Source: Tubiluchus corallicola (Eukaryota > Animalia > Priapulida). From it: a stretch of 64,000 nucleotides of DNA. Positions 32,890 to 64,000 of this stretch are shown here, in pieces. Within the stretch, counting starts at the first letter, position 1, and every line of letters starts with the position of its first letter. The stretch is from the NCBI GenBank assembly GCA_030141605.1, contig JAQGDQ010000841.1:24817-88816 (forward strand). Direction: 5' to 3'. The notes beneath the pieces are model-generated. The model saw nothing but the letters and a program-made list of their open reading frames with translations. It was not told where the DNA came from and did no database searches. Both the position numbers and the translations under genes were made by a program.

Positions 32890-32926
32890 ATAAACAGATC
32901 AGTATATTTGTGTTTATAGTACTGGC

Positions 32927-35641: not shown

Positions 35642-35689
35642 AGCTCATAATTATGAAGTCCCTATGAGCTCATGAAAATGACGTCATGG

Positions 35690-36712
35690 CCTGAGTCTCT
35701 GTGAGCTCATGACTTGAGCTCAGCATGATGTCATGCTATGAGGTCTCTGTGAGCTCATGACTTGAGCTCAGTATGATGTCATGCTATGAGGTCTCTGTGA
35801 GCTCATGACTTGAGCTCAGTATGATGTCATGCTATGAGGTCTCTGTGAGCTCATGACTTGAGCTCAGTATGATGTCATGCTATGAGGTCTCTGTGAGCTC
35901 ATGACTTGAGCTCAGCATGATGTCATGCCATGAGGTCTCTGTGAGCTCATGACTTGAGCTCAGCATGTGTCATGCCATGAGGTCTCTGTGAGCTCATGAC
36001 TTGAAGCTCAGCATGATGTCATGCCATGAGGTCTCTGTGAGCTCATGACTTGAGCTCAGTATGATGTCATGCTATGAGGTCTCTGTGAGCTCATGACTTG
36101 AGCTCAGTATGATGTCATGCTATGAGGTCTCTGTGAGCTCATGACTTGAGCTCAGTATAATGTCATGCCACGAGGTCTCTGTGAGCTCATGACTTGAGCT
36201 CAGTATGATGTCATGCTATGAGGTCTCTGTGAGCTCATGACTTGAGCTCAGTATGATGTCATGTTATGAGGTCTCTGTGAGCTCATGACTTGAGCTCAGC
36301 GTGATGTCATGCCATGAGGTCTCTGTGAGCTCATGACTTGAGCTCAGCATGATGTCATGCTATGAGGTCTCTGTGAGCTCATGACTTGAGCTCAGTATGA
36401 TGTCATGCTATGAGGTCTCTGTGAGCTCATGACTTGAGCTCAGTATGATGTCATGCTATGAGGTCTCTGTGAGCTCATGACTTGAGCTCAGTATGATGTC
36501 ATGCCACGAGGTCTCTGTGAGCTCATGACTTGAGCTCAGCATGTGTCATGCCATGAGGTCTCTGTGAGCTCATGACTTGAGCTCAGCATGATGTCATGCC
36601 ATGAGGTCTCTGTGAGCTCATGACTTGAAGCTCAGCATGATGTCATGCCATGAGGACTCTGTGAGCTCATGACTTGAGCTCAGCATGATGTCATGCCATG
36701 AGGTCTCTGTGA
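35690..36712. repeat. 48-bp tandem repeat, ~21 copies
   Basis: Unit GAGGTCTCTGTGAGCTCATGACTTGAGCTCAGTATGATGTCATGCTAT. Confidence 0.95.
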
Positions 36713-38666: not shown

Positions 38667-38829
38667 CATCATCATCATCATCATACGCCCGTCACGTCTA
38701 TTGTAGACATTGGGCAGGCAGAATTCTAAAATAAAAGAAATCTGCCTTCATACAGGTAAACGCAGCAGTAATCCAGCAAAAAAACTAGACACTGCTATGC
38801 CAGTGGCTTGTCAGCACCACTACCGAGGC
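38667..38829 (-). mobile_element. Short RTE-type retroposon, copy 3
   Basis: 11-bp TSD ATTAATACAAT (38656-66, 38830-40); (ATC)n on the plus strand. Confidence 0.8.
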
Positions 38830-38914
38830 ATTAATACAATGCCGTAATGTAACTTTGTTTGAGTTTTACGTGTTTCAGCTTTGATTAACAGTTTACTATA
38901 GATGAAAGTTTTAT

Positions 38915-41425: not shown

Positions 41426-42357
41426 TCGTCCTAGTTTTATTTCGACGGCTTCAGTCGGCATGTTTCTCGCTATGAAGTAAAGACGTTTTCTCTGTACGTT
41501 TTACTCGTGGACTATGTAATTTGCTACAACTTAGCACTTTTAGAAATGTGATTACACCTAAAGACCAGCAACGTTTTCGAGCAGTCCAGATATGTTATGA
41601 TGCATTTTGTGCACTATCGGAGTTTACAGCCAAATGGATACTTGGGGCAATTTTGTTTAATCCGTTATGGGGTTACTACTGTTCATGTGGAAGGTTGGAC
41701 TAAATATCACCGCATACATTTACCTGACGCCAGCCTTTGAGGAAGCTAAACCATTCTCGATGTTACCGCACCTACCTCATCTACTGGACAGTGCAGACTT
41801 CCACTGACGTCACCAATGACTTTTGTTGTATGCCAGGAGTTAATAGACAGTAAACCATCTCAGTGTGGACAGATTTTTCGGTGCAGGGTAATTAGGGAAG
41901 GGTAATTAGCGAGTACCTAGTGTATTAGGTCTTGGTTTGTTTATCTTTAGTTTGATTTTGTCTCGTATTTATTTTTTCCATGTCTGGTAAACAACATTAT
42001 GTCTAAGAAGTTATGCAACAATTTGTAGGTTTCTTATTTAAAGTATAAGATGATTTAGATTTGCTTTAGCGAAAAACAGCTATGCTGTAGTGATTATGTA
42101 TAGTCTTGTTGTCTGACAGACTGTCTTTGAAAGTATTTTTAATTTTAGACCAAAAGAAACTGCAGCCTTCTGACTGATTTTGGAAATATCCTTTTGATCA
42201 TCACAAATTTGTTCATTAAATTTTGATCGTTTCTATACACAAAAATAGGTGTTTTTGGAGTGAACGTTTAAAAAAGTATTTAAATAGTAAAAGTATCATG
42301 AATAGTTCACACTTTGTTTGCTAAACACAAAAACAGTAACTCAAGGCCGACACTTAA

Positions 42358-42490
42358 TATCCCACTCGTGATTCGAACCCACATCTCCTGTCTCAAGGTA
42401 CGCCCCGTAGAGGTACCAAGAGTCAACTCGTTCAGTTTCTAGACTACTACCATCTCTGTACTACTACCCCACCGCTCGGCTAGGAGTACT
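42358..42490 (-). other. tRNA-derived SINE head or pseudo-tRNA
   Basis: Minus strand: A-box TAGCCGAGCGGT and B-box GGTTCGAATC; spacing too long for a plain tRNA. Confidence 0.35.
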
Positions 42491-42607
42491 AGTTTGGGAA
42501 TTGTTGGAATAAATCTGGTTTAAAATAAGTACAGAAAACGAACGAGTAAAAGCCCGGCATCACAGAGTGAGAAAACAGCTTCCCTCTCCCAGGTCCTTTG
42601 TTAGACT

Positions 42608-43215
42608 GTCGGTCAAAACAATCTGTTCTTTAAAATATTGAAAGGAAACATCCCGTTTTTTAATGAATGACTTACGTGAAAGAATTATAACCACACACAC
42701 AATTTCACGCTCATACCAATTGTTCTTCTACATGCTTCTAGTTCGTGCCACTACATGCATTTCGCCATTTTCTAGTTAGACGGGCACTAGCGCCTACGTT
42801 TTGAAAACGCATTGCGCAAAAGACAGGTGCTGTACTTCTCAGTTCAGATGTGTTAGTTTGTTACGAACTACACACGTTCGACGGCTCATGCGTCAGCACA
42901 CGATAAATTTGAAATTTGAATTTTTATCTTAAAACTTGCCTAGTTTTAGTACAACACACGGAATATCTTACAGTAGCACTAATCTTCAATTTTCGCTTTC
43001 GCAAACACGCGCAACACGCTTATGGAAAATTTTTGCTATTGAAAATTATGTTAGCTTGTGATGTTGTCAATACTTGGGCTCGCCCGCCATTATTTAAGAT
43101 TTTAATCTATTATTTAATTATCAGAAACGCTTTTGCAGTATTAATTGTGTTAAGATGTATACTTTCTAGCGGACTTGAAAATGGGGAAGTATATGAAAAA
43201 TCATCCGTCTTAGTT
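42608..43215. mobile_element. Kolobok-like MITE family, copy lacking its left end
   Basis: Shared body; ends AAAATCATCCGTCTTAGT|TTAA. Confidence 0.6.
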
Positions 43216-43736
43216 TAACAGGATTTTTCTCTTGACTACTTAACCTCAACTCAGGTCGTTGACTCTACGCGGTCTACATCAGTCTTAAAGCAACAGGGAA
43301 CAATAATTGTGTCTTTGTTGTGAAGACAGATGACAGATGGTCACCTTAACTGAGCGAGTGTAATTAAGAGAAAACGCCTCAAGACTAGAGGATTACATAC
43401 TGTACACGAAAGTGCAGTATAACTTCGTTTATTACACCACCAGACAGGTTGTACTTGCAGTTTACTTTGCCGTGAGCAGAATAACACGTTTTATGGCAGT
43501 TCTCTTTTGCGCTGCGTCAGTAACCAATTTTTTGGTGAGTGGTCAGTCGTGGTCTATTGAACACGTGACTAGAGAGCGAAAAGTGAAGTGAACAGGTCAG
43601 TAACTCCTGCAAATTCTTTTGAAAATTAGTTTTGAAAAAACATGACAATTTGTTGGTGATTGTTGTTAGCAAATAGAGTAATAAGTACTTTTAAAATTAA
43701 AGAATGCGGTATTATAAGATTTCAGCTTGACCACAA

Positions 43737-43812
43737 GGTGTTGTATGGTCTAGTGGTCAAGGCATGCGACTTGCAATTCAAAGGTCTCTAGTTCAAATTC
43801 AAGCTATAGCCA
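43737..43812 (+). other. tRNA-like SINE head or pseudo-tRNA
   Basis: TGGTCTAGTGG A-box and GTTCAAAT B-box at tRNA spacing; stems imperfect. Confidence 0.4.
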
Positions 43813-44007
43813 AATGTTGCTTCAATGCTTTTTTGAATAATTTTGCTGTCTTTCTGTTTACTTTTCCAATTTTAAGTGTTTAGTAAACGATAAGTGATTG
43901 ATTTGTTATTACGACGCTTTAAACTTTGCAGCACTGTAGCAGTGATTGCTGTTACCAATAAACTTCCAGGATTGTTTCCAGACGAATTGGACAAGCAGAA
44001 CAACTTC

Positions 44008-47000
44008 ATGGTATTGACTGGTATTGTTATATTGCTTGTTTTGTCAACGCATAGTCGAAATGCAGGTAGGTAATGTTGAAAAAAATCGCAATTGAAAATC
44101 ACCATCATCATTATGCCTAATACGTAAAACGCATGTTGTAGACATTGGGCAGGTAGAACTCGAAAATGAAAGAATTTTGTCCTCAAGGCAGCTAAACACA
44201 GCAGTTATCCAGGACGAAATTAGACGCTGCTATGCGAATTGCTTGTCAGCACCAATTCCTCTCTTAATTGAAAGATAAGAAAAACGTTCGATCCGAACGA
44301 GTTTTTTTAGCTCGAATTAGTCATTTAAGTCATAAGTCATTTATTTCACATTACACATTTACAATAGTTTCATGTTCAATATCTAGTGAAAGGGCCTACA
44401 ATGAACGTAATACAAATAAAAAATACTGCACAGGAAAAGCCTCAAACACTGTTCACTTATATACGAAGGTAAATGTGTTGCGGGCAATCAAAAAGCAGGG
44501 CTTGTTAGATTGTCCCACACAGTGAAAGAAAAAAAGTAATGGAAATAATCTGAAAATTTAAAGTGAATCGTGATAAAAAAAGTTGTAAATTCGAATAACT
44601 CAGCACTTCATCTTTGTTCGTTCTTTATCATTAAAGCGTTTGAAACATCATGCAAGCAGCACAATTTCTGTAAACAATTTTTAAGCAAATTATTAGCGTT
44701 TTTACTGCAGAACAAAATCAATATGTGCATCATGATTTTTGTGATTTTTATTAGTGATTGGAAATTCCATTGAAATTCTTTAAAACAGACTTCTAGATTG
44801 GAAAAATTAATCCTAAAATTTAGTTTGGTTCGAATTTGAGGAAGAAATTCGATTCGATTCGAATTCACTTTCTGCTTGAGAAAGTCCCCCCATCAAACAA
44901 CACTCAACAAGCTGAACGTTTTTGGTCACTAGAAGGACTGTCCTAACAGCATTATAGGCCCGGGCCAGAGTAGTACCACTGGGGCCTCTTACCTGCACAA
45001 CACAATTTTTGGTCACTAGAAGGACTGTCTTAATAGCATTATAAGCCCAGGCCAGAGCAGTACCACTGGGGCCCTCTTACCTACACAACTCACAATTTTT
45101 GGTCACTAGAAGGACTGTTTTAACAGAATTATAGGCCCCGGCCGAAGCAGTACCACTGGGGCCCTCTTACCTACACAATACAATTTTTGGTCACTAAAGG
45201 ACTGTCTTAACAGCATTATAAGCCCGGGCCAGAGCAGTACTACTGGTGCCCTCTTACCTACACAACACAATTTTTGGTCACTAGAAGGACTGTCTTAACA
45301 GCATTATAGGCCCCGGCTGAAGCAGTACCACTGGGGCCCTCTTACCTACACAACACAATTTTTGGTCACTAGGACTGTCTTAACAGTATTATAGGCCCCG
45401 GCCAAAGCAGTGCCACTGGGCCCTCTTACCTGCACAACTCACCATTTTTGGTCACTAGAAGGACTGTCTTAACAGCATTACAGGCCCCGGCCGAAGCAGT
45501 ACCACTTGGACCCTCTTACCTACACAACACAATTTTTGGTCACTAGAAGGACTGTCTTAACAGCATTATAGGCCCGGGCCAGAGTAGTACCACTGGGACC
45601 CTCTTACCTACACAACACAATTTTTGGTCACTAGAAGGACTGTCTTAATGGCATTATAAGCCCAGGCCAGAGCAGTACCACTGGGGCCCTCTTACCTACA
45701 CAACACAATTTTTGGTCACTAGAAGGACTGTCTTAACAGCATTATAGGCCCCGGCCGAAGCAGTACCACTGGGGCCTTCTTACCTACACAACACAATTTT
45801 TGGTCACTAGAAGGACTGTCTTAACAGCATTACAGGCCCCGGCCGAAGCAGTACCACTGGGGCCCTCTTACCTACACAACACAATTTTTGGTCACTAGAA
45901 GGACTGTCTTAACAGCATTATAAGCCCGGGTCAGAGCAGTACCACTGGTGCCCTCTTACCTACACAACACAATTTTTGGTCACTAGAAGGACTGCCTTAC
46001 CAGCATTGTAGGCCCCGGCCGAAGCAGTACCACTGGGGCCCTCTTACCTACACAACACAATTTTTGGTCACTAGGACTGTCTTAACAGCATTGTAGGCCC
46101 TGGCCGAAGCAGTACCAATGGGGCCCTCTTACCTAAACAACACAATTTTTGGTCACTAGAAGGACTGTCTTAACAGCATTATAGGCCCCGGCCAAAGCAG
46201 TAGCACTGGGGCCCGATTACCTGCACAACACAATTTTTGGTCACTAGAAGGACTGTCTTAACAGCATCATAAGCCCCGGCCGAAGCAGTACCACTGGGGC
46301 CCTCTTACCTGCACAACTCGCAACTACTCACAGGAATAAAAATATAAATGGTTGACAGAATTAAACATAACACAGGTTATTTGCAGGCTAATAGATAACG
46401 GGTTATTCTAGGCTGTTGCAAAGTAGCATTGGATAACAGGTGTTCGGAAATGGCTGCCCTTAGTGTACAGTACAAGTCAAAAAGCCAACAAAACCATTGA
46501 GAAAGAGCAGTTAAGTTTGAATCAAGAAGCGTTATCCTGTGTGTTTCACAGTTACTCACAGTTCTGAGGACCATAAATGGACACGAGATGATTCATGCAG
46601 GTTCTCAGTGGGAGTGGTGTCATGACACATTTGTTCCAGAACTTAAGTTGATTTTTTTTCTTCCCACAACGAGGAGTGGAAAGATATTAGAACCGCACAT
46701 AAAATAAGGAATTTCATAACAACAGGATTTATATCTACATGTATTTGCGAAAGTTTTAATAATAGCCGAGCTATCATTTCTTGTCATCCTGCAAACTGTC
46801 TTAAAATGAAACAAGTCATTTTCTTAATCTCTAATTTTTTTCTTTTCAGAGGCTTCAGAGGTATTTTGGTCTTCCATACCATCGTCATTTCCTTGTCGAA
46901 CTCTGTCTACAGCAACGTGTAACGACTCGTTAACAAATGAGTGTCCGAGGGTCATTCCAGCTCTCACACCTAGCCTCTTCTCTCATGTTTTACCTGTGGT

Positions 47001-50000
47001 CAACTTTGGATTAGATGGTCAAATAGGTGAGTGTCCGAGGGTCATTCCAGCTCTCACACCTAGCCTCTTCTCTCGTGTTTTACCTGCGGTCAACTTTGGA
47101 TTAGATGGTCAAATAGATAAGTGTCCTAGGGTCATTCCAGCTCTCACACCTAGGTCTCTTCTCTCATGTTTTACCAGTGGTCAACTTTGGATTAGATGGA
47201 CAAATAGGTGAGTATCCCAAGGTCATTCCAGCTCTCACACCTAGGTCTCTTCTCTCATGTTTTACCTGTGGTCAACTTTGGATTAGATGGACAAATAGGT
47301 GAGTATCCCAAGGTCATTCCAGCTCTCACACCTAGACTCCTCATGTTTTACCTGTGGTCAACTTTGGATTAGATGGTCAAATAGGTGAGTGTCCTAGGGT
47401 CATTCCAGCTCTCACACCTAGTCTCTTCTCTCATGTTTCACCTGTGATAAACTTTGGATTAGATGGTCAAATAGGTGAGTGTCCTAGGGTCATTCCAGCT
47501 CTCACACCTAGTCTCTTCTCTCATGTTTCACCTGTGGTCAACTTTGGATTAGACGGTCAAATAGGTGAGTGGAGTAATACCTTTGATATTACGGTTTTTT
47601 CATTGTGAAGTTATATAAATTTTACACTTGTAGAAATTTTGTCATGGCCTTAGGTTCCTTTCCAAACTCTGTTAGGACCATAAGACTTTGCTGCAGTTTG
47701 CACACGTTCACGAAACTGCTCACGGCGATTGCACTATATTTGATAATTTTTGTAGGTTTCTACTCCTCACATGATGGATTTTCATGCAAAATTATCTATG
47801 AAATGCATTTGCCTACCTCAGACAAATTGAAAATCAATTTTGACGCTTTCAGTAACTGCAGTGTTTGCACTGTAACAATGTATAGTATCACTTGCGTGAA
47901 ATCGGTTAATGCAGAAAATTTCAACTATCCAGATACAACAGTCTGATTCACTTTGACCTCATGTCTACTATATTTTTAAGGAGAAATTCCTGTTAAAAGA
48001 TGAAACCAACCTAAATTCCTCCTTTCCTGATCGGTTTGTTTTTCCTGGAATAACAGCAGAACACTGCACAGACGATCATTAAATTAGTGTGTACGATCAC
48101 GCAAGTGTGTACCAGACTAGCGGCTACTCATAGATCAAGTTGGAGTGCCTGAAAAGGGCGTGTTCCTCGTAATTTTATCCAATTAAATCGCTTATGAATG
48201 TTTAAACAAATAGCTTGATTGGATAGCCGAGATTCTCCTGCATAGAACAGTACCTAATTTGTAATCAGTTAGTTATGTCTGTGCTCATATAGTAGCAGAA
48301 AAGTCACAGGTTTTGTGATATTTTGAATGGTTTGGTCATGAAGTAGCTAAGTGAAAAACACTATGGCAGTTATCGTAGGTAATAAAATACATAATTGAGA
48401 CCACAGATAAAAATGACAGGTAGTCTTAAAATTCACGTGTGCTAAGCCTTGCTTTGTTTAAGTAAAATAAAATATCTTCATTTATCCTAATCAAATACAG
48501 CAATACGCAAATTCATCATTTGATGTTACCTTCGAATTTAGCCTATCTTTTGTGTTCATTTTGTAGTTGAATATCTGCCAAACTACGTGAAGAAACATCT
48601 AAAATGGAGGTTGAATATGCCTTGGAGGATTATAAAGAGGATGTTTGAACGATCAAACTATCATAGGGCAAGATCTGGTACGAATGCTCAATAATTTTTC
48701 AATTTGCGGTTTTTAATATTTGGCACAACTTAGGCAGGCTTTCAGTATAGCCAGCACAAGGATGTACATTTATGTACAGTTAATTCTACCGTAGAATTTA
48801 TGTAGAATAGCTACATTAATTCTACCGTAGAATTTATGTAGAATAGTTACATTAATTCTACCATAGGATTTATGTAGAATAGCTACATTAATTCTACCGT
48901 AGAATTTATGTAGAATAGCTACATTAATTCTACCATAGGATTTATGTAGAATAGCTACGTTAATTTTACTGTAAAATTTATGTAGAATAGCTACGTTAAT
49001 TCTAATGTAGAATTTATGTATAATAGCTAAGTTAAGTCCAATTTATGCAGAGCAGCAACGTTAATTCAACGTAGAATATATTTATATATACATATGTGTG
49101 TGTAGTGTGTTTATATACGTGTGTCTATATACTACAATGACTACACGTCTAAATATATGAATTAAAAGCCATTATATAGCTATGTTAAAGATTCTGAGTT
49201 TAATGAGTTAAAATGTGAGAACAAATATAACAATAAACAAACTAACGGGCTCACAAACAGGCAGACGGACAAAAAAACGAACGAATACATTTAACACCAC
49301 TATCACGACTCTCATTATGTTTGTGGCTTGCAGTAAAAGCTTGCTCAAAAACACGTAAGCAGGTTCACTAACATAAATATTCATTCAGTCTTAACAACCA
49401 GAATACATGTTATCTGTTAGTAGCTTTATTGTGTACCGACAGGTAAAGAGTGGACAGCTTGTTGGTGTAAAAGAATTTCCATTGAACAGATGGAAGGGTT
49501 AAAAGCATATCAAAAAGTAAGTGATACAACGTTTAAAACGGTTTAAGCGTAAGTTATTAGTTCATAGCCTATTACTACTACCACTTGCTACCTTCATTAC
49601 TGAACTCTTCACTGTAGTAAAGTCACCAGTAAGAATATGCTACCTTCATTATTCTACTCTTCACTGTAGTAAAGTCAGCAGTAAGAATATGCTACCTTCA
49701 TTATTCTACTCTTCACTGTAGTAAAGTCAGCAGTAAGTATATGCTACCTTCATTATTCTACTCTTCACTGTAGTAAAGTCAGCAGTAAGAATATGCTACC
49801 TTCATTATTGTACTCTTCACTGTAGTAAACTCAGCAGTAAGAATATGCTACCTTCATTATTGTACTCTTCACTGTAGTAAAGTCACCAGCAAGAACATGC
49901 TACCTTCATTATTGTACTCGTCACTATAGTAAAGTCATCAGTAAGAATATGTTACCTTCAGTATTGTACTCTTCACTGTAGTAAAGGCACCAGTAAGAAC

Positions 50001-53000
50001 ATGCTACCTTCATTATTGTACTCTTCACTGTAGTAAAGTCACCAGTAAGAATGTCATGCTAACTTCATTATTGTACTCTCCACTGCAGTAAAGTCACCAG
50101 TAAGAACATGCTACCTTCATTACTGTACTCTTCATTGTAGTAAAGTCACCAGTAAGAATATGCTACCTTCAGTATTGTACTCTTCACTGTAGTAAAGGCA
50201 TCAGTAAGAACATGCTACCTTCATTATTGTACTCTTCACTGTAGTAAAGTCACCAGTAAGAACATGCTACCTTCATTATTGTACTCTCCACTGCAGTAAA
50301 GTCACCAGTAAGAATATGCTACCTTCATTATTGTACTCTTCACTGTAGTAAAGTCACCAGCAAGAACATGCTACCTTCATTATTGTGCTCTTCACTATGG
50401 TAAAGTCATCAGTAAGAATATGTTACCTTCAGTATTGTACTCTTCACTGTAGTAAAGGCACCAGTAAGAACATGCTAAATTCAGTATTGTACTCTTCACT
50501 GTAGTAAAGTCACTAGTAAGAATATGCTACCTTCATTATTGTACTCTTCACTGTAGTAAAGTCACCAGTAAGAATATGCTACCTTCAGTATTGTACTCTT
50601 CACTGTAGTAAAGTCACCAGTAAGAACATGCTAACTTCATTATTGTACTCTTCACTGTAGTAAAGTCACCAGTAGGAACATGCTACCTTCATTATTGCAC
50701 TCTTCACTGTAGTAAAGTCACTAGTAAGAATATGCTACCTTCATTATTGCACTCTTCACTGTAGTAAAGTCACCAGTAAGAATATGCTACCTTCAGTATT
50801 GTACTCTTCACAGTAGTAAAGGCATCAGTAAGAATATGCTACCTTCATTATTGTACTCTTCACTGTAGTAAAGTCACCAGTAAGAACATGCTAACTTCAT
50901 TATTGTACTCTTCACTGTAGCAAAGTTACCAATAAGAATATGCTACCTTCATTATTGTACTCGTCACTGTAGTAAAGTCACCAGTAAGAACATGCTACCT
51001 TCATTATTGTACTCGTCACTGTAGTAAAGTCACCAGTAAGAATATGTTACCTTCATTATTGCACTCTTCACTGTAGTAAAGTCACCACTAAAGATATGGT
51101 GATTTTCATTGTTTTACACTTCATTGCAGTACAGTCACTTCCCAGGTTCTGGTACAGAGAATGCGCACAAAGACAGTTTTTGGAGGAGCATACTGCACAT
51201 GCGTAAAAAATTTGGCTCAAAAGAATTTGGTTTCGTGCCAATCAGCTTTCTTCTGCCTGACCAGATGACAGAGTTTCTGAGTTACTATGACAACCATCCT
51301 CAAGGAAAGTGGATACGTAAACCAGTAAGTTCTAGTACACAATGTCTGCGCATTAATTGCTTTTGACTAATATAATACTTTAATTTTAATTTGATTGAAT
51401 ATGAAGCTGTTTCTGAATAAATTCTAAAATAATAATTGGTGCTTTACAGCATCTTGCTTTCAATGCTTAACAAAATGATATTATTGAAAAAAGTTTTGTG
51501 TTTTTTTTTGTCTTGTACTTTTATACTCCACTCGTAGTTTAGCAAGTTTGGTGGGAGAGATGTGGCAGTTTTGAACAACCGCAGTCAGCTACCAAACGAT
51601 CCTGACAAGCCTTTCATTATTCAGAGGTTTGTGTAGTCTATATTGTTCGTCTCTAATCTCTAATGCATTAAAAGATTGGTTGCAAAAGTAAAAGAGCTAT
51701 ACTATTGATATGGTCTACGAATGTTTAGATTGATGCAAACTAGGAGCTCTGCCTACTATAGATAAATTTCCATTTTTTTATTACCTAATTGTTAACTAAA
51801 TCTAACTAATTATTTATTAATGAGTGAGTGACCATTAAGACCTATAATGTACAAAACTAAAAAGATTTTCATTTTTATTTTTTTGCTGCAACTTGTCGAA
51901 AAGTTTGTGTTTTCATTTCAGTGCCATTTTCTGGTACTGAGCTTGCAGGGAAGTCTTTTGTACAAGACGGCGCTGTTCTTTCTTATCCACATCCAAAACG
52001 AGTTTAAGATCTCAACAAAACATGAACACATCCATATTACTAACTGAAATAAATAATTTTTGTGCTTCTAGGTATATCAGTAAGCCACTGCTTATTGAAG
52101 GTTATAAGTTTCACGTTAGATTACACGTTTACGTCTCATCAATACAACCAATGAGGATTTACATTCATGAAAATGGACTTGTACGATTCGCCAGCAACAA
52201 GTAAGAACGTTTTTCTTCAATTCAAAACTCACTTGTGAATAAAACATCACGAGCACTTTTTTCTACAGTTTCAATGTGATTTTGTAACAATGTCCACTCT
52301 TTTACGAACGAAAGCTTTCTTTTAAAGGAATACAGGATGATTTTTTATGCACTACACCATTTTCAAATCCGATAAACACTATACATTTTTACTGCAAAAG
52401 CGTTTCTGATAACTAAATAACAGATTAAAAACATATTTAATGGAGGGCAAGTCTAACTAATGATGACATCACGAACTAACATAATTTTAAGCGGCAAAAA
52501 TATTCCATGAGCGTGTTCCTCGTGTATGCAAAAGGGAAAATTGAATACAGTGCTAAGATATTCAGTGTGTTATGTTAAAATTAGGTAAGTTTTAAGATAA
52601 AAATTCAAATTACAAATTTGCTGCTGTGCTCATACATGAGCGTTGAAACTAACACGTCTGAACTGAGAAGTACAGCACCTGTTTTTTGTGCAATGCATTT
52701 CTGAAATGCAGGCGCTAGTGCCCATCTAACTAGCGAATGCCAAAATGCAAATAACAGGGAAGAACTAGTGGCGTGAACCGGAAATTGTGTTTCTGTGGTA
52801 ACGATTCGTTTACGTAAGTCATTTTTGAAAAAATAGTACGTTTCCTTTCAGTATTTTAAAGAGTACATTTGTTTTGATCAGTTTAAGATTGGATCCGGTT
52901 TTGCTTTAATAGTAAATGACATAATTGCTTTTACTGTTAGAAGCAAAGTCTATTAAATAGAAAAGAGATTCTTGGCACAAAAATAGCATATTTTACGCCT

Positions 53001-56000
53001 AATATTTAAAGAATGTCACTTTTTTAAGAACTTAATCAAAGCAGATTGTAGCATCACATTCAAACGGAAGAAAAAACCTTGACACCGATCACTGCTATTA
53101 GCTTGTTTACCATTCTTCCCTACTATTATCACGTACCTCTTTAAAGAGAAGTGTTAAGACAATTTTCGTCTGATGTAACAATGACTTTTCATACTGAAAT
53201 GTGCACTTGCCAAGTGTTTTTAAATGCGAAAAAGACTTTTGGATGTGAATTAAGTTTTGGTACCGCAGTTGCATGGATTTTGTTGGCACGGTACGCACCA
53301 GTTCTGCAAGTTCATGTGGTAGAGAAATTGCCACATCATACATGGATCATATTGATGCATTGGAAGTCAAAAACTTGTTGAGTCTTGTGATTGTTTTTAT
53401 TTCATGGATCATATTGATGCATTGGAAATCAAAAACGTGTTGAGTCTTGTGATTGTTTTTATTTCGTGGGTCATATTGATGCATTGGAAATCAAAAACGT
53501 GTTGAGTCTTGTGATTGTTTTTATTTCATGGGTCATATTGATGCATTGGAAATCAAAAACGTGTTGAGTCTTGTGATTGTTTTTATTTCATGGATCATAT
53601 TGATGCATTGGAAATCAAAAACGTGTTGAGTCTTGTGATTGTTTTTATTTCATGGATGATATGGATGCATTGGAAATCAAAAACGTGTTGAGTCTTGTGA
53701 TTGTTTTTATTTCATGGATCATATTGATGCATTGGAAATCAAAAACGTGTTGAGTCTTGTGATTGTTTTTATTTCGTGGGTCATATTGATGCATTGGAAA
53801 TCAAAAACGTGTTGAGTCTTGTGATTGTTTTTATTTCATGGATCATATTGATGCAATGAAAATAAAAAACGTGTTGAGTCTTGTGATTGTTTTTATTTCA
53901 TGGATCATATTGATGCATTGGAAATCAAAAACGTGTTGAGTCTTGTGATTGTTTTATTTCATGGATCATATTGATGCATTGGAAATCAAAAACGTGTTGA
54001 GTCTTGTAATCGTTTTTATTTCAGATACTCCAACAAGGATTCTGATGCATCCAACAGCTTCATGCATCTCACTAACTGGGATTTGAATAAAAAAAATAGA
54101 CATTCAAGGCAGAATATTACCTTCAGTCCAACGTATAATTACATGTGGTAAGTGGTAGGTCTCTTTCACTCTGATGGTAACAGATCATGCAGTGAGACCA
54201 CAGCTGCCAAGGCCGTCTTAGACCTTCTCCTCATGTGTTAGTACAGTCAACCTCGGGTATAAGGTACTCGCTTATAAGGGACCACCAACACTAATGGTCC
54301 CGATTTTTCGTAACATTTTTCCTATGTAAAAATCTTTTTATATAAGGTACTCGGATATAAGGGACTTACGGTTATAAGGGACAATATCTTAAGGTCCCGC
54401 GTAATAGAAACCCAGGTAAATTACCTCGCATATAGAGGTCCCTATGATCAAAGCGAAATTGATTTTTAACCTCAATTTTTGCAAACACATCTCGCATCAC
54501 TGAAGGAGCTTCCTACATACCGTTTGCACTGAATGTGTAGCAATAATCCATAAAAATATGGGTGAAAGTGCAAAGAAAGTACAGGTCTAGATACACCCTC
54601 TGTCTGTCTCAGCTTCGGCTATAAGCGATTTTTTCCGGTCCTGAGGTGTCCCTTATATCCGAGTGTTGGGAGCTAGTAGATTTTTATGGTGGGGGTGCAA
54701 CTCTTTACCTCCCAACTCATCCACAAATCTGACTACCCTGTTGCGTCATCTTTTATTCACAATAAAAGGGTTGTGCAACATACGTGGGCGGTTGTTGTCA
54801 TACAATTTTCCAGAGGGCAAGAAGGCATATGAACCAAAATTCAACGACACAGGTATAATTAATATATCTTTAGTGAAGTTGCAATGTCGAAGGGCTCACT
54901 TGAAAAACCAGCGGGTCTAAGGCTTGATGTTACGTTTTACGGGGGTCTACTTAGGCGTTATGGTTTTCCATGTTGACCATGACATACATAGATTCCAAAC
55001 ATTCCAGCAACAAAATCTTATATGAAATGGAGGAAAAGATTATGATTATGTTTACTATTTTTATTCACTTTTTACTCTGTTTAGATAAATTAGAACAGGT
55101 TATAATATCAATAACAGTTTCGCGTAAAGGCAGTTAATAATAACAAAAATGACAAAGTGAAAAGAATACAAAATGTCTACTTATCAGTTAACCCTTCCCC
55201 TGAGAGGACAAGGACATGGGAGAGGAGTCCGCGGACGTAGCTCACTCCAGTCAGTCACAGCAACACATCAACGACTTCAAGTCTATGGCCATAACAATCA
55301 ACGGTGATGGCGCCGGCTGCAGCACCAATCAAACATGAACTAAGGAATGGCTCACAAGTCTCTGTGGTTGACTCAGGATACGTCCACAATCCACAACGTC
55401 TGGACACTGGTGGCTAGTCACGCCTCTCCGTGTAGTTTAGAATAAGACACATCGTAGAAAGTTCCAACATCTCATCAGTGTGAATAAAGCTCCATCCACA
55501 ACATCAAAACTGAAGTAGTTTGGTATCACCACTGATAGTCTCTTTATGTTAGATCAGTCAAATAGTAGATGTGCACAAGTTTAGTGCTTCAGACTCGTTA
55601 CACTGTACTCTCCTGGCTATCTGTGTCATGCACTTTCCAAGATCATGTTATGCATGGATAGTTTATAGTATATTATCAAAGGAGGGGTGATAGGTAGGAA
55701 GCCCTTCCCACAGACTATACTACAGCAATATCTAGTTTAGCTATGTGTAAGAACCTTACACCGAGGTTGACCGTATGCATGTTTCATTTATCTAATAATA
55801 CTCTGTTTTGGTAGACTAGTTACATTATTTATTATTTTCAGGACATTAAGAACTTTTTGGAAATACTTGGACCATAAAGGATCGGAAAATAGGAATGAAC
55901 TATGGCAAAAGATGCAAGATATGATTATAAAGCAGTTGATAAGGTAGGAAAAGATGAGAAAATTATGCAAAAGAAAGTTCGAGATGAGATTGCAATTTAA

Positions 56001-56168
56001 TTTTAAATTACGTTTTCTGCATTTTGTTTACAGCGTGGAATGGGTGATGAATCACATGATGAACGCGCATGTCAAAAACCGTTATTCTTGTCATGAGATC
56101 TACGGTTACGACTTCATGTTTGACGAGAATCTCACCCCTTGGATGCTAGAAAATAATGCTGAACCCAG
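44008..56168 (+). CDS. TTLL4: TTLL4-like tubulin-tyrosine-ligase-family (ATP-grasp) protein with putative N-terminal signal peptide; 3'-truncated here
   Basis: Exons 44008-44065, 46850-47026, 48567-48677, 49443-49516, 51130-51324, 51538-51626, 52072-52200, 54025-54147, 55842-55943, 56034-56168, all GT-AG and phase-compatible. Motifs: PALTPSLFSHVLPVVNFG, SHFPGS..KDSFWR..KFGSKEFGFVP, KWIRKP, IIQRYISKPLLIEGYKFHVR, GLVRFAS, FMHLTN, RYSCHEIYGYDFMFDENLTPWMLENN. The first exon is the least certain. Confidence 0.85.
44100..44260 (-). mobile_element. Short RTE-type retroposon, diverged copy 4
   Basis: TTGTAGACATTGGGCAGG..GCTTGTCAGCACCA shared with the other copies. Confidence 0.6.
44920..46320. repeat. 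~88-bp tandem repeat, ~16 copies (TTLL intron)
   Basis: TTTTTGGTCACTAGAAGGACTGTCTTAACAGC recurring. Confidence 0.95.
46939..47570. repeat. 90-bp tandem repeat, 7 copies, spanning exon 3' end and donor
   Basis: GAGTGTCCGAGGGTCATTCCAGC...CAAATAG|GT; the first copy is coding. Confidence 0.95.
48780..49075. repeat. 36-bp tandem repeat, ~8 copies
   Basis: TTAATTCTACCGTAGAATTTATGTAGAATAGCTACA. Confidence 0.85.
49587..51090. repeat. 52-bp tandem repeat, ~29 copies, filling a TTLL intron
   Basis: GCTACCTTCATTATTGTACTCTTCACTGTAGTAAAGTCACCAGTAAGAATAT. Confidence 0.95.
52326..52905. mobile_element. Kolobok-like MITE, full length (inverted relative to the other copies)
   Basis: TTAA|AGGAATACAGGAT ... 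ATCCGGTTTTGCT|TTAA. Confidence 0.75.
53341..54022. repeat. 62-bp tandem repeat, 11 copies, ending at a splice acceptor
   Basis: CATGGATCATATTGATGCATTGGAAATCAAAAACGTGTTGAGTCTTGTGATTGTTTTTATTT. Confidence 0.95.
54244..54668. mobile_element. pogo/Tigger-like MITE (mirrored at about 61008-61429)
   Basis: TA|CAGTCAACCTCGGGTATAAGG ... CCTTATATCCGAGTGTTG; internal TATAAGGGAC subrepeats. Confidence 0.6.
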
Positions 56169-56189
56169 GTAAGAATAAGACAATTGGTA

Positions 56190-56685
56190 AGATGTGTGGT
56201 GAACGCACACCATGGCTGGGCAGTGAATGCCAAGTGACCGCAGTGAGATGTGTGGTGAAAGCACACCATGGCTGGGCAGTGAATGCCAAGTGACCACAGT
56301 GAGATGTGTGGCGAAACCAGGCCATGGCTGGTCAATGAATGCCAGGTGACCACAGTGAGATGCGTGGCGAAAGCACGCCATGGCTGGGCAGTGAATGCCA
56401 AGTGACCACAGTGAGATGTGTGGTGAAAGCACGCCATGGCTGGGCAGTGAATGCCATGTGGCCACAGTGAGATTGTAGTGAAACCACGCCATGGCCAGGC
56501 AGTGAATGCCAGGTGACCACAGTGAGATGTGTGGCAAAAGCACGCCATGGCTGGGCAGTGAATGCCAGGTGACCACAGTGAGATGTGTGGTGAAAGCACG
56601 CCATAGCTGGGCAGTGAATGCCAGGTGACCACAGAGAGATGTGTGGTGAAACCATGCCATGGCTGGGCAGTGAATGCCAGGTGAC
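56190..56685. repeat. 56-bp tandem repeat, ~9 copies (mirrored at 58991-59486)
   Basis: GATGTGTGGTGAAAGCACGCCATGGCTGGGCAGTGAATGCCAGGTGACCACAGTGA. Confidence 0.95.
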
Positions 56686-58990
56686 AGTAGGGTAGATGTT
56701 ACACCTCTGGCCGATTTCCCCCCCTCCTTTGGCTGCCCCTAAAAAAGTGCGAAAATCCGGAAACACCCCTAAAAAAGTGAAGTGGCTCTATTGTCGTGCT
56801 AGTTAAGTGACCAATTTAAGGATTAGGAGTGACGGTTGGTCGACGGGCCACGCCCCCCTCGGCTGCCGGGGGTGGGAACAAAAATCACCCCCTAAAAAAG
56901 TGAAGTGGGTCTATTGTTGCGCTAGTTAAGTGCTCGATTTAAGGATTAGGAGTGACGGTTGGAACTCCCGCACGCTTTGGGGGGGTGCACCCGGCGAGAA
57001 CACCCCCCCTCCGCGGTAAATGCAGTCGTCCGTTCGACACGAGCTCGCTGCGCACTTTGCTCCACCCTAATTGTGGCTAATCCGGTAATCGACTCTCGCC
57101 GCCTAGCTAGCTAGATAATGGGGTAATTGACTTGCGCGCGTGCGTGGCTACGCTAAAAGATTTCTCTACCCACGTGCAGCAGTGCACAGTCTCGTCATCG
57201 TCGTTAAATGGTTAGGATGTTCTTTTATGCGAGTCTAAATTGCCATGCAATTTTTAAAAATTTTACCCCACCCTCATCCGGGCTAGAATGTTCTTTTATG
57301 CGCGTCTAAGTTGCGATACAATTTTATCCTACCTTTATCCGAGATGGATGGATGGATGGATGGATGTCGTCGCCAAAAAGCCTCCTTCGCTCCATCCAAT
57401 GCGGTCGCATCGTGCAACATACAGTCTACTCACACGCGCACACACCGCCGAGCACGATTGTTAGCACGGGCCGACCATTAGCACGAACGTTACCACGTGT
57501 AACATACAGTCTACTCACGCGTCACCGAGCATGATTAATTTCTGGGTTTCTTTATTTTTTTGTCAACTGTAACCAACGATGATGATGATGATGATGATGA
57601 TGACGACGATGATGACGCGGTATTACCTAAAGCAGAGTCTGATCTTTGGTCGTCATCCACTTTTTTATCCGACAGAACAATAATAACTAATGTTAGTTAA
57701 AATTATCTTTTCATTTTGTAAAATCTTTCTATCTGTACTAACTCGCATGTTTAAACCCGCAACGAATGCACTCATCTGATCAGACGCCAAGGCAGGCACG
57801 TGTCTATTTTGAAAAAATCTTTCTATCTGTACTAACTCGCATGTTTAAACCCGCAACGAATGCACTCATCTGATCAGACGCCAAGGCAGGCACGTGTCTA
57901 TTGCTTAATCCGGTAATTGACTCGACTACCTAGCTAATGAGGGCTTAATCCGTTAATTGACTTGCTAGACATGACACCCGCGGCTATTTAAGTGCGTGTA
58001 CCTGTTTTTTAAAAGCCCGTTGGAATGTACAGCAAGCAGACAGTAGGACAGCTGCCGTCTAGGCAATTGAATGCCTGCAGCCTTCTAGTCTGCACGAATT
58101 TCAACGAGTCAGTATTTTTTAGGTGAGGATATATATATATAATCCCAAAAACTCACACAAGTTGGTTACAGTTGACAAAAAAATAAAGAAACCCAGAAAT
58201 TAATCATGCTCGGTGACGCGTGAGTAGACTGTATGTTACACGTGGTAACGTTCGTGCTAATGGTCGGCCCGTGCTAACAATCGTGCTCGGCGGTGTGTGC
58301 GCGTGTGAGTAGACTGTATGTTGCACGATGCGACCGCATTGGATGGAGCGAAGGAGGCTTTTTGGCGACGACATCCATCCATCCATCCATCCATCTCGGA
58401 TAAAGGTAGGATAAAATTGTATCGCAACTTAGACGCGCATAAAAGAACATTCTAGCCCGGATGAGGGTGGGGTAAAATTTTTAAAAATTGCATGGCAATT
58501 TAGACTCGCATAAAAGAACATCCTAACCATTTAACGACGACGACGAGACTGTGCACTGCTGCACGTGGCTAGAGAAATCTTTTAGCCCATTATCTAGCTA
58601 GCGGCCAGCTAGGCGGCGAGAGTCGATTACCGGATTAGCCACAATTAGGGTGGAGCAAGCAAAGTGCGCAGCGAGCGCGTGTCGAACGGACGACTGCATT
58701 TACCGCGGAGGGGGGGGGGTGTTCTCGCCGGGCGCACCCCCCCAAAGCGTGCGGGAGTTCCAACCGTCACTCCTAATCCTTAAATCGAGCACTTAACTAG
58801 CGCAACAATAGACCCACTTCACTTTTTTAGGGGGTGATTTTTGTTCCCACCCCCGGCAGCCGAGGGGGGCGTGGCCCGTCGACCAACCGTCACTCCTAAT
58901 CCTTAAATTGGTCACTTAACTAGCACGACAATAGAGCCACTTCACTTTTTTAGGGGTGTTTCCGGATTTTCGCACTTTTTTAGGGGCAGC
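56686..58990. mobile_element. Non-coding long-TIR element (~850-890-bp TIRs, 583-bp core), Maverick/Polinton-like or foldback
   Basis: GC-rich insert beginning AGTAGGGTAG; arms 56732-57577 / 58161-58990; internal direct repeats; no ORF. Confidence 0.55.
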
Positions 58991-59507
58991 GTCACCTGGC
59001 ATTCACTGCCCAGCCATGGCATGGTTTCACCACACATCTCTCTGTGGTCACCTGGCATTCACTGCCCAGCTATGGCGTGCTTTCACCACACATCTCACTG
59101 TGGTCACCTGGCATTCACTGCCCAGCCATGGCGTGCTTTTGCCACACATCTCACTGTGGTCACCTGGCATTCACTGCCTGGCCATGGCGTGGTTTCACTA
59201 CAATCTCACTGTGGCCACATGGCATTCACTGCCCAGCCATGGCGTGCTTTCACCACACATCTCACTGTGGTCACTTGGCATTCACTGCCCAGCCATGGCG
59301 TGCTTTCGCCACGCATCTCACTGTGGTCACCTGGCATTCATTGACCAGCCATGGCCTGGTTTCGCCACACATCTCACTGTGGTCACTTGGCATTCACTGC
59401 CCAGCCATGGTGTGCTTTCACCACACATCTCACTGCGGTCACTTGGCATTCACTGCCCAGCCATGGTGTGCGTTCACCACACATCTTACCAATTGTCTTA
59501 TTCTTAC

Positions 59508-62500
59508 CTGGGTTCAGCATTATTTTCTAGCATCCAAGGGGTGAGATTCTCGTCAAACATGAAGTCGTAACCGTAGATCTCATGACAAGAATAACGGTTT
59601 TTGACATGCGCGTTCATCATGTGATTCATCACCCATTCCACGCTGTAAACAAAATGCAGAAAACGTAATTTAAAATTAAATTGCAATCTCATCTCGAACT
59701 TTCTTTTGCATAATTTTCTCATCTTTTCCTACCTTATCAACTGCTTTATAATCATATCTTGCATCTTTTGCCATAGTTCATTCCTATTTTCCGATCCTTT
59801 ATGGTCCAAGTATTTCCAAAAAGTTCTTAATGTCCTGAAAATAATAAATAATGTAACTAGTCTACCAAAACAGAGTATTATTAGATAAATGAAACATGCA
59901 TACGGTCAACCTCGGTGTAAGGTTCTTACACATAGCTAAACTAGATATTGCTGTAGTATAGTCTGTGGGAAGGGCTTCCTACCTATCACCCCTCCTTTGA
60001 TAATATACTATAAACTATCCATGCATAACATGATCTTGGAAAGTGCATGACACAGATAGCCAGGAGAGTACAGTGTAACGAGTCTGAAGCACTAAACTTG
60101 TGCACATCTACTATTTGACTGATCTAACATAAAGAGACTATCAGTGGTGATACCAAACTACTTCAGTTTTGATGTTGTGGATGGAGCTTTATTCACACTG
60201 ATGAGATGTTGGAACTTTCTACGATGTGTCTTATTCTAAACTACACGGAGAGGCGTGACTAGCCACCAGTGTCCAGACGTTGTGGATTGTGGACATATCC
60301 TGAGTCAACCACAGAGACTTGTGAGCCATTCCTTAGTTCATGTTTGATTGGTGCTGCAGCCGGCGCCATCACCGTTGATTGTTATGGCCATAGACTTGAA
60401 GTCGTTGATGTGTTGCTGTGACTGACTGGAGTGAGCTACGTCCGCGGACTCCTCTCCCATGTCCTTGTCCTCTCAGGGGAAGGGTTAACTGATAAGTAGA
60501 CATTTTGTATTCTTTTCACTTTGTCATTTTTGTTATTATTAACTGCCTTTACGCGAAACTGTTATTGATATTATAACCTGTTCTAATTTATCTAAACAGA
60601 GTAAAAAGTGAATAAAAATAGTAAACATAATCATAATCTTTTCCTCCATTTCATATAAGATTTTGTTGCTGGAATGTTTGGAATCTATGTATGTCATGGT
60701 CAACATGGAAAACCATAACGCCTAAGTAGACCCCCGTAAAACGTAACATCAAGCCTTAGACCCGCTGGTTTTTCAAGTGAGCCCTTCGACATTGCAACTT
60801 CACTAAAGACATATTAATTATACCTGTGTCGTTGAATTTTGGTTCATATGCCTTCTTGCCCTCTGGAAAATTGTATGACAACAACCGCCCACGTATGTTG
60901 CACAACCCTTTTATTGTGAATAAAAGATGACGCAACAGGGTAGTCAGATTTGTGGATGAGTTGGGAGGTAAAGAGTTGCACCCCCACCATAAAAATCTAC
61001 TAGCTCCCAACACTCGGATATAAGGGACACCTCAGGACCGGAAAAAATCGCTTATAGCCGAAGCTGAGACAGACAGAGGGTGTATCTAGACCTGTACTTT
61101 CTTTGCACTTTCACCCATATTTTTATGGATTATTGCTACACATTCAGTGCAAACGGTATGTAGGAAGCTCCTTCAGTGATGCGAGATGTGTTTGCAAAAA
61201 TTGAGGTTAAAAATCAATTTCGCTTTGATCATAGGGACCTCTATATGCGAGGTAATTTACCTGGGTTTCTATTACGCGGGACCTTAAGATATCGTCTTTT
61301 ATAACCGAAAGTCCCTCATATCCGAGCACCTTATATACGAAGATTTTTACATAGGAAAAACTTTACAAAAAATCGCGACCGGTATTGGTGGTCCCTTATA
61401 AGCGAGTACCTTATACCCGAGGTTGACTGTACTAACACATGAGGAGAAGGTCTAAGACGGCCTTGGCAGCTGTGGTCTCACTGCATGATCTGTTACCATC
61501 AGAGTGAAAGAGACCTACCACTTACCACATGTAATTATACGTTGGACTGAAGGTAATATTCTGCCTTGAATGTCTATTTTTTTTATTCAAATCCCAGTTA
61601 GTGAGATGCATGAAGCTGTTGGATGCATCAGAATCCTTGTTGGAGTATCTGAAATAAAAACGATTACAAGACTCAACACGTTTTTGATTTCCAATGCATC
61701 AATATGATCCATGAAATAAAACAATCACAAGACTCAACACGTTTTTGATTTCCAATGCATCAATATGATCCATGAAATAAAAACAATCACAAGACTCAAC
61801 ACGTTTTTTATTTTCATTGCATCAATATGATCCATGAAATAAAAACAATCACAAGACTCAACACGTTTTTGATTTCCAATGCATCAATATGACCCACGAA
61901 ATAAAAACAATCACAAGACTCAACACGTTTTTGATTTCCAATGCATCAATATGATCCATGAAATAAAAACAATCACAAGACTCAACACGTTTTTGATTTC
62001 CAATGCATCCATATCATCCATGAAATAAAAACAATCACAAGACTCAACACGTTTTTGATTTCCAATGCATCAATATGATCCATGAAATAAAAACAATCAC
62101 AAGACTCAACACGTTTTTGATTTCCAATGCATCAATATGACCCATGAAATAAAAACAATCACAAGACTCAACACGTTTTTGATTTCCAATGCATCAATAT
62201 GACCCACGAAATAAAAACAATCACAAGACTCAACACGTTTTTGATTTCCAATGCATCAATATGATCCATGAAATAAAAACAATCACAAGACTCAACACGT
62301 TTTTGACTTCCAATGCATCAATATGATCCATGTATGATGTGGCAATTTCTCTACCACATGAACTTGCAGAACTGGTGCGTACCGTGCCAACAAAATCCAT
62401 GCAACTGCGGTACCAAAACTTAATTCACATCCAAAAGTCTTTTTCGCATTTAAAAACACTTGGCAAGTGCACATTTCAGTATGAAAAGTCATTGTTACAT

Positions 62501-63601
62501 CAGACGAAAATTGTCTTAACACTTCTCTTTAAAGAGGTACGTGATAATAGTAGGGAAGAATGGTAAACAAGCTAATAGCAGTGATCGGTGTCAAGGTTTT
62601 TTCTTCCGTTTGAATGTGATGCTACAATCTGCTTTGATTAAGTTCTTAAAAAAGTGACATTCTTTAAATATTAGGCGTAAAATATGCTATTTTTGTGCCA
62701 AGAATCTCTTTTCTATTTAATAGACTTTGCTTCTAACAGTAAAAGCAATTATGTCATTTACTATTAAAGCAAAACCGGATCCAATCTTAAACTGATCAAA
62801 ACAAATGTACTCTTTAAAATACTGAAAGGAAACGTACTATTTTTTCAAAAATGACTTACGTAAACGAATCGTTACCACAGAAACACAATTTCCGGTTCAC
62901 GCCACTAGTTCTTCCCTGTTATTTGCATTTTGGCATTCGCTAGTTAGATGGGCACTAGCGCCTGCATTTCAGAAATGCATTGCACAAAAAACAGGTGCTG
63001 TACTTCTCAGTTCAGACGTGTTAGTTTCAACGCTCATGTATGAGCACAGCAGCAAATTTGTAATTTGAATTTTTATCTTAAAACTTACCTAATTTTAACA
63101 TAACACACTGAATATCTTAGCACTGTATTCAATTTTCCCTTTTGCATACACGAGGAACACGCTCATGGAATATTTTTGCCGCTTAAAATTATGTTAGTTC
63201 GTGATGTCATCATTAGTTAGACTTGCCCTCCATTAAATATGTTTTTAATCTGTTATTTAGTTATCAGAAACGCTTTTGCAGTAAAAATGTATAGTGTTTA
63301 TCGGATTTGAAAATGGTGTAGTGCATAAAAAATCATCCTGTATTCCTTTAAAAGAAAGCTTTCGTTCGTAAAAGAGTGGACATTGTTACAAAATCACATT
63401 GAAACTGTAGAAAAAAGTGCTCGTGATGTTTTATTCACAAGTGAGTTTTGAATTGAAGAAAAACGTTCTTACTTGTTGCTGGCGAATCGTACAAGTCCAT
63501 TTTCATGAATGTAAATCCTCATTGGTTGTATTGATGAGACGTAAACGTGTAATCTAACGTGAAACTTATAACCTTCAATAAGCAGTGGCTTACTGATATA
63601 C
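59508..63601 (-). pseudogene. TTLL4: Inverted duplicate of TTLL4-like exons (3'-truncated copy)
   Basis: Mirror exons 63473-63601, 61526-61648, 59733-59834 and 59508-59642 match the plus-strand exons. Confidence 0.85.
62768..63347. mobile_element. Kolobok-like MITE, mirror copy in the palindrome
   Basis: TTAA|AGCAAAACCGGAT ... ATCCTGTATTCCT|TTAA. Confidence 0.75.
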
Positions 63602-64000
63602 CTAGAAGCACAAAAATTATTTATTTCAGTTAGTAATATGGATGTGTTCATGTTTTGTTGAGATCTTAAACTCGTTTTGGATGTGGATAAGAAAGAACAG
63701 CGCCGTCTTGTACAAAAGACTTCCCTGCAAGCTCAGTACCAGAAAATGGCACTGAAATGAAAACACAAACTTTTCGACAAGTTGCAGCAAAAAAATAAAA
63801 ATGAAAATCTTTTTAGTTTTGTACATTATAGGTCTTAATGGTCACTCACTCATTAATAAATAATTAGTTAGATTTAGTTAACAATTAGGTAATAAAAAAA
63901 TGGAAATTTATCTATAGTAGGCAGAGCTCCTAGTTTGCATCAATCTAAACATTCGTAGACCATATCAATAGTATAGCTCTTTTACTTTTGCAACCAATCT

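Follow-up and report, generated by a model that had tools for sequence, protein, structure and literature searches.

A TTLL4-derived protein of the priapulid Tubiluchus corallicola with its catalytic residues intact and its predicted glutamate contacts replaced

A 64,000-nucleotide stretch of the Tubiluchus corallicola genome (GenBank assembly GCA_030141605.1, contig JAQGDQ010000841.1, positions 24,817 to 88,816 of the forward strand; hereafter the window) carries on its forward strand a multi-exon gene related to TTLL4. Characterised TTL/TTLL enzymes attach tyrosine, glutamate or glycine. The protein encoded here keeps the catalytic residues of these enzymes, whereas the residues that would contact the donor and acceptor glutamates have been replaced, a combination that makes a ligase with another donor and another acceptor likely. 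Judging from sequence, we lean, with a little better than even confidence, towards the view that the family to which this protein belongs is a fast-evolving, TTLL4-derived, ATP-dependent amide ligase that would use a donor other than glutamate and a non-standard acceptor.

Retained and replaced residues of the active site

The core of the gene occupies positions 51130-56168, where six exons, all flanked by AG and GT, splice into 257 stop-free codons. Four of these exons match the Pfam TTL domain (PF03133) with E values of 1e-7, 2e-15, 2e-3 and 4e-11, three of the matches exceeding the curated cut-off, which places the protein in the TTL/TTLL ATP-grasp family; the exons at 51538-51626 and 55842-55943 gave no Pfam match. 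A preliminary description of this DNA had singled out five remodelled motifs in the segment, including a glycine at the position that separates initiases from elongases, and had reported the ATP-grasp lysine, the HLTN motif, the catalytic E-x-N motif and an aspartate as retained. All five motifs are indeed present, and the conservation extends to ten of ten catalytic residues.

Positions are given in mouse TTLL6 numbering, transferred through an alignment to a hagfish TTLL4-like protein, and residue roles are taken from the accessible passages of the TTLL6 structure paper (bioRxiv 10.1101/2020.06.07.139295). The ten residues named for TTLL6 as nucleotide, magnesium or phosphate residues (K125, K174, G181, R219, R241, T263, N264, D346, E359 and N361) are all retained, and with them the family's catalytic set of lysine, arginine, asparagine, aspartate and glutamate (K125, K174, R219, R241, N264, D346 and E359). 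Around this core, phenylalanine is found at 179 and histidine in place of Tyr221, and the remaining alterations are distributed over the exons as follows. The exon at 51130-51324 contains K125 (51169) and K174 (51319), with R124 changed to histidine and a one-residue insertion ahead of K125; that at 51538-51626, which contains the β5-β6 loop, has glycine at position 180 (51550) and aspartate in place of G183 on either side of the retained G181. The exon at 52072-52200 keeps R219 and R241 and has histidine for D217 (52112), and the exon at 54025-54147 keeps T263 and N264, followed by tryptophan for Y265, aspartate for S266 (54080) and methionine for the donor lysine, Lys283 (54143-54145). A helical exon at 55842-55943 ends in KQLI, and the last exon found, at 56034-56168, carries D346, E359 and N361, with alanine at 362, glutamate at 363 and a phase-2 donor.

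Among 79 columns that are at least 85% conserved in 87 long TTLL4/5-type homologs (drawn from 151), the window protein departs from the conserved residue at 19. None of the ten catalytic columns and all four of the conserved substrate-contact columns are altered (Fisher p 0.001); the probability of four altered out of four by chance is 0.003, and that of none out of ten is 0.052, which is only borderline when taken alone. The residues that the protein carries at positions 124, 217, 265, 266, 283, 360, 362 and 363 occur in none of the 87 homologs, and Gly180 in one, so canonical TTLL4 proteins do not commonly carry these substitutions, a possibility that the preliminary description had raised against its own proposal.

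For an altered donor, the best evidence is the change of Lys283 to methionine, the most telling of the substitutions. In TTLL6, as described in the passages available, K283 and K377 hold the γ-carboxylate of the donor and the activity of the K283A mutant is at background; K283 is invariant in glutamylases, and hydrophobic or polar residues occupy its place in glycylases (bioRxiv 10.1101/2020.06.07.139295). The window protein lacks this lysine, and the methionine encoded at 54143-54145 is of the glycylase kind, as in the structure 5vlq. No exon for K377 was detected in the window; in a sister protein, P0006, the residue is phenylalanine. Because Met283 replaces a lysine essential to TTLL6 glutamylation, glutamate is an unlikely donor. 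As a first guess, the donor would be a small or neutral amino acid, as for a glycylase; a basic amino acid or amine, suggested by the acidic side chains gained with Asp266 and Glu363, would be our second.

On the acceptor side, Q180, H362 and S363 of TTLL6 are acceptor contacts according to the same passages, and Ala335 of TTL, the equivalent of residue 363, also touches the acceptor glutamate (PMC3563685, in the part available). At position 180 the window protein has neither the arginine of initiases (TTLL4/5, TTLL3/8) nor the glutamine of elongases (TTLL6, TTLL10), the codon at 51550-51552 specifying glycine. Since Gly180 and Ala362/Glu363 remove contacts to tubulin-tail glutamates, the internal tubulin glutamate that normally serves as acceptor is probably not the one used here. 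In the mechanism that we envisage, ATP and two magnesium ions (with K125, K174, N264, D346 and E359) would phosphorylate the acceptor carboxylate, R219 and R241 would hold that carboxylate, and the amine would attack the acyl-phosphate as in all TTL/TTLL enzymes. The new donor or acceptor specificity put forward earlier would fit these changed substrate contacts and is an inference from them.

Relationship to TTLL4 and to P0006

The best named matches to the window protein are animal TTLL4s, at 37-40% identity. A careful tree of 38 rows nests it on the animal TTLL4 side of a branch supported at 100/99, which places it in the TTLL4 lineage. There, P0006 is its sister (ultrafast bootstrap, UFBoot, 97; Shimodaira-Hasegawa-like approximate likelihood ratio test, SH-aLRT, 93), inside animal TTLL4 and apart from both the outgroup and another long branch. 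A quick tree of 81 rows also joined the two proteins (at 96) but placed them between groups. The trees contained no glycylase (TTLL3/8/10), and the branch leading to the window protein is very long, at 1.19 changes per column.

P0006 comprises 465 residues, with a complete C-terminal part and an apparently short N-terminus. The insertion before K125 is common to it and the window protein only (one of 167 pattern-matched sequences), as is the glutamine that replaces threonine in the KQLI motif. Nine rare residues are common to the two proteins, compared with a mean of 1.3 and a next-best count of 6, and two of the nine occur in no other row. P0006 has nine of the ten catalytic residues (G181 is alanine) and retains Arg180 and Asp217; both of its donor lysines have been replaced, by arginine at 283 and by phenylalanine at 377, the latter together with a six-residue deletion. 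Structure prediction, which covered P0006, yielded a model (predicted local distance difference test, pLDDT, 82) that matches TTLL6 with Z 32.7 and a root-mean-square deviation of 2.6 over 348 residues (Foldseek E 4e-24), and the fold is accordingly predicted to be that of an intact TTLL.

Single-exon word-index searches revealed no close ortholog of the window protein (none of nine candidates, and one of four, a bee TTLL4). Scanning by HMMER with the exon at 51130-51324 gave 158 matches, the best of which did not exceed E 1e-7 or about 52% identity. When P0006 was compared with proteins of 255-814 residues, the closest match among the best 120 of 435 was 42% identical. In the ESM Atlas, P0006 returned only TTL/TTLL4-type clusters. 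A 17-residue match from a metagenome scan (L001) was dismissed as chance.

Close copies and selection

Close copies of the gene, visible only as contigs from sequencing runs (X1, X2, X3 and X5) aligned to the window, are seen at four exons. The X1 contigs represent the window's own copy, with no differences over 51105-52210 and 55733-56239. At the exon 54025-54147, nine of ten aligned contigs (X1, X2, X3 and X5) diverge from the window by 10-20% of bases, and the tenth is the window's own copy. Only silent changes affect the H-L-T-N motif and Asp266 in the paralog-like contigs, Asp266 being present in every contig that covers it, and position 265, tryptophan in the window, is isoleucine, leucine or arginine in other contigs.

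The Nei-Gojobori ratio of nonsynonymous to synonymous substitution rates (dN/dS) for this exon against four contigs is 0.32, 0.36, 0.21 and 0.24 (one-sided p 0.03, 0.06, 0.014 and 0.005), values not near 1, although they derive from 29-40 codons of one exon, from pairs that are not independent and from possibly chimeric contigs, with a likeness floor of 80% and differences near contig ends unlisted. Contigs of X6, a presumed RNA run, aligned to the window as repeat pieces only and have no bearing on expression.

Upstream exons and a candidate signal peptide

Three further exons lie 5′ of the core on the same strand (46850-47026, 48567-48677 and 49443-49516) and were located through tblastn, a profile of TTLL4 N-termini and reading of the translation. 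With them the open frame grows to 377 stop-free codons in nine homologous exons, all with intact splice sites. The first, with AG/GT ends and an open frame, includes the 'PSLF' motif of TTLL4 N-termini as well as three cysteines (independent E value 6e-6 against the N-termini profile); the second corresponds to the 'LKW' region of TTLL4; the third ends in a conserved QK, and a paralog-like contig shows five listed differences there.

The window is AT-rich and abounds in introns and minisatellites. At 46938-47571 (+), the 3′ 90 bp of the exon 46850-47026, together with its splice donor, have been amplified into a tandem array of 7.1 copies, the third of which is frameshifted. Other minisatellites stop exactly at exon acceptors (49586-51138 and 53341-54023) or start just past a donor (56190-56685).

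A candidate first or upstream exon at 43932-44065 (+), as yet unconfirmed, has roughly even odds of being real, judged on the features of its sequence. It contains an ATG at 44008 and a 19-codon hydrophobic stretch resembling a signal peptide or signal anchor, with a 12-residue mean hydrophobicity of 3.13, and its frame is open back to an acceptor at 43931. A phase-1 donor (CAG/GTAGGT) joins it to the exon at 46850 in an open frame and in the required phase, with an Ala-x-Ala motif just past the junction. No other such candidate was found within 30000-46849. In dinucleotide shuffles a comparable match arose in 1-4 of 200 over 5.4 kb (41402-46849) and in 3-27 of 200 over 13.6 kb (33200-46849), depending on thresholds that were chosen post hoc, and comparable chance matches occur elsewhere in the window. 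None of 233 homologs that start with methionine and span at least 400 residues has a comparable hydrophobic start, the best reaching 2.33 as against 3.13. The stretch could instead be an internal signal anchor. As a weaker element of the mechanism, a signal peptide or anchor at the N-terminus may route the protein into the secretory pathway. The 377 residues include four N-glycosylation sequons, a frequency no higher than that of TTLL4s in the cytosol, and the sequons were therefore not counted in favour of secretion. These upstream exons and the possible signal peptide, like P0006 and the change of Lys283 to methionine, had been overlooked in the preliminary description.

Alternative explanations

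Several observations weigh against an altered ligase, beyond the borderline probability for the catalytic columns and the narrow base of the dN/dS values. P0006, itself on a long branch, is only 38% identical to the window protein and lacks Gly180, His217, Asp266, Met283 and Glu363. Trp265, and a threonine ahead of the PW motif, are private to the window copy. Met283 falls within the zone at contig ends where differences are unlisted, and its presence in the paralogs is therefore not directly visible; in the two best contigs, all but one of the differences (21 of 22 and 18 of 19) map to other places, and it is likely to be common to the paralogs. The changes at Asp217 and Gly183, the missing 3′ end and a one-base loss in one contig, which likewise count against this reading, are taken up below with the alternatives to which they relate.

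One alternative, which we hold to be unlikely, is that the family constitutes a conserved pseudoenzyme or binding scaffold that has kept the fold together with some of the nucleotide site and performs no ligation, in the manner of TTLL12, which has been described as catalytically inactive (PMC3520985, in the part available). Asp217, invariant in 169 of 169 homologs including P0006, is histidine in the window protein, Gly183 is aspartate and Tyr221 is histidine; the first two of these changes might impair nucleotide binding. The preliminary description took Asp217 to be a nucleotide contact, a role that the passages of the TTLL6 paper do not confirm. The free variation of position 265 among the paralogs would also suit a scaffold. 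On the other hand, a pseudoenzyme would not readily account for the retention of all ten TTLL6 ATP, magnesium and phosphate residues (nine of ten in P0006) or for the clustering of the changes at substrate contacts.

The state of the 3′ end raises a second alternative. Two profiles, and tblastn with P0006, detected no exon in the window for the next helix or for the conserved C-terminal block past the E-x-N motif. The complete C-domain of the TTL/TTLL family, with its helix after E-x-N, is thus present in P0006 and not seen in the window; the missing block takes in the K377 helix, and read-through beyond the E-x-N exon ends one codon after the motif. Downstream, a 583-bp spacer at 57578-58160 (unstranded), in high-copy repeat DNA, separates the two arms of an extensive inverted duplication. 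Beyond it, 58161-64000 is a reverse-strand copy of 51673-57577 that is 99.6% identical over 5013 bp and extends past the window end. Four exons recur in this arm without a single change (63601-63473, 61648-61526, 59834-59733 and 59642-59508), and the differences between the arms are concentrated in repeat segments. If the palindrome is real, both copies are truncated; if it is a fold-back mis-assembly, the true 3′ end is elsewhere. The 3′ exons may lie outside the window or have been lost through mis-assembly, and the window copy may itself be truncated or mis-assembled; as assembled, it would lack activity unless the 3′ exons that belong to it are located elsewhere. X1 contig depths are 165-195 in the duplicated segments, 153-169 in the upstream segments and 128-210 for paralog contigs; depth is not copy number, and the similarity of these values hints that the second arm may not be a true extra copy. 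In addition, the X2 contig of the window's own copy has one A fewer in a run of eight at 54089. X2 is gapped where X1 is not, making a run-length error plausible, and a frameshift allele is possible.

Such features could describe a dead or dying duplicate, cut by the inverted duplication, in which much of the active-site change would stem from relaxed selection. The undetected 3′ exons and the fold-back are joined here by the branch length of 1.19, the private Trp265, the X2 base loss and the tandem amplification of part of one exon. We nevertheless consider this quite unlikely, as the nine exons and their 377 codons are stop-free with intact splice sites, dN/dS is 0.21-0.36, X1 matches the window exactly over both segments compared, the X2 gaps might be run-length errors, and the high-copy repeat at the fold-back centre is a possible site of mis-assembly. 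The earlier statement that all exons are free of stops and frameshifts holds for the window and must be qualified by the X2 contig and the undetected C-terminal exons. Similarly, the statement that the protein is not simply decaying finds support at the level of the family, from the contrast between catalytic and substrate-contact columns, the dN/dS values and the Asp266 common to the contigs; it is less secure for the window copy, with its private Trp265 and threonine and its 3′ exons missing at the inverted duplication.

That the protein continues to add glutamate, with only its regioselectivity or its range of substrates altered, seems very unlikely. In favour of this view, the nearest family is TTLL4 (39% identity), K377 is not visible in the window and is retained in a clade of bee proteins with Met283, and Arg283 of P0006 could still bind a carboxylate. 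Against it, K283A alone reduces TTLL6 to background, the lysine is invariant in glutamylases (in the passages cited above), and Asp266 and Glu363 would, by sequence mapping, make the surroundings of both glutamate sites more negative.

Implications

If an altered ligase is the correct reading, a TTLL4 offshoot with intact catalytic residues and rebuilt donor and acceptor sites would offer a further TTLL chemistry from nature. The locus also tests the rules derived from TTLL6, namely K283 and K377 for the donor and residue 180 for initiation versus elongation, and were the signal peptide true, the place of action would be a compartment free of tubulin. A tentative extension, which we think probably goes too far, is that duplicates of TTLL4 in an animal lineage have become ATP-grasp ligases of the secretory pathway, which would join an amine, or an amino acid other than glutamate, to proteins that are secreted or reside in the lumen, residue 265 tuning the donor from copy to copy. 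Such a modification would not belong to the tubulin code, and animals would have remodelled these pocket positions on more than one occasion. A full-text literature search (outside subscription journals) found, in the portions accessible, neither an account of a TTLL4 offshoot of this kind nor one of any TTLL bearing a signal peptide, and the parts available of PMC12340829, PMC13052805, PMC8987236 and PMC6628110 contain nothing on such an offshoot.

Neighbouring features of the window

Elsewhere on the forward strand of the window, an uninterrupted frame of 715 codons at 13770-15914 encodes doublecortin and protein kinase domains (DCLK-like) and, together with the AT richness, introns and minisatellites, marks the DNA as that of an animal; a 179-codon frame at 32350-32886 encodes an LRAT (NlpC/P60-like) domain. 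At 1967-2793 (+), a BTB-domain fragment is directly followed by a reverse-transcriptase fragment, and the region 3092-4218 is self-inverted, with 84% identity over about 1.1 kb.

Comparison with known TTLL enzymes

By the residues at these positions, the window protein does not appear to qualify as a glutamylase, an initiase or an elongase, and a glycylase identity is no more than possible. TTLL4, a tubulin monoglutamylase and branch initiase, is the nearest family by sequence and tree and has the N-terminal motifs and core catalytic residues in common with it. The window protein differs from TTLL4 in having glycine for Arg180, methionine for Lys283, Trp-Asp for Tyr-Ser at 265/266, Ala-Glu for Ile-Ser at 362/363 and histidine for Asp217, as well as in the insertion before K125, the several close copies, the possible signal peptide and the lack of 3′ exons in the assembly.

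The monoglycylase TTLL3 (Xenopus; PDB 5vlq) resembles the window protein in its methionine at the place of residue 283, before a conserved tryptophan, and its alanine at the place of 362, and 5vlq is the best PDB sequence match of the window's last exon (E 1e-4). It differs in having serine where the window protein has Asp266 and Glu363, the remainder of the window protein being TTLL4-like; moreover, Arg180 is invariant in TTLL3 and TTLL8, according to the available passages (bioRxiv 10.1101/2020.06.07.139295), and is glycine here. The elongase TTLL6 (PDB 6vzt and related entries), the structural match of the P0006 model and the source of the numbering, has Gln180, His362, Ser363 and Lys283, all of which are substituted in the window protein.

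A parallel in the altered positions is provided by a bee clade of 14 TTLL4-like proteins (P0200, P0204, P0207-P0213, P0215, P0217, P0219, P0220 and P0223), 13 of which are named TTLL4 in their source. These proteins carry aspartate or asparagine at 124, alanine at 180, threonine at 265, methionine (13) or isoleucine (1) at 283 and phenylalanine, leucine or tyrosine at 363, and their catalytic residues are retained apart from one R241K; the clade is itself a candidate for an altered specificity. Unlike the window protein, they keep Asp217, Ser266 and K377, and their N-terminus is not hydrophobic. In the best tree the clade sits with hymenopteran TTLL4, although the approximately unbiased test does not reject a common origin of this clade and that of the window protein (p-AU 0.235). 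The loss of Lys283 in TTLL4-like proteins is therefore not unique to this locus, which supports a function for the change while lowering its uniqueness, and the bee proteins, complete in public records, are annotated as monoglutamylases even though they lack both K283 and R180.

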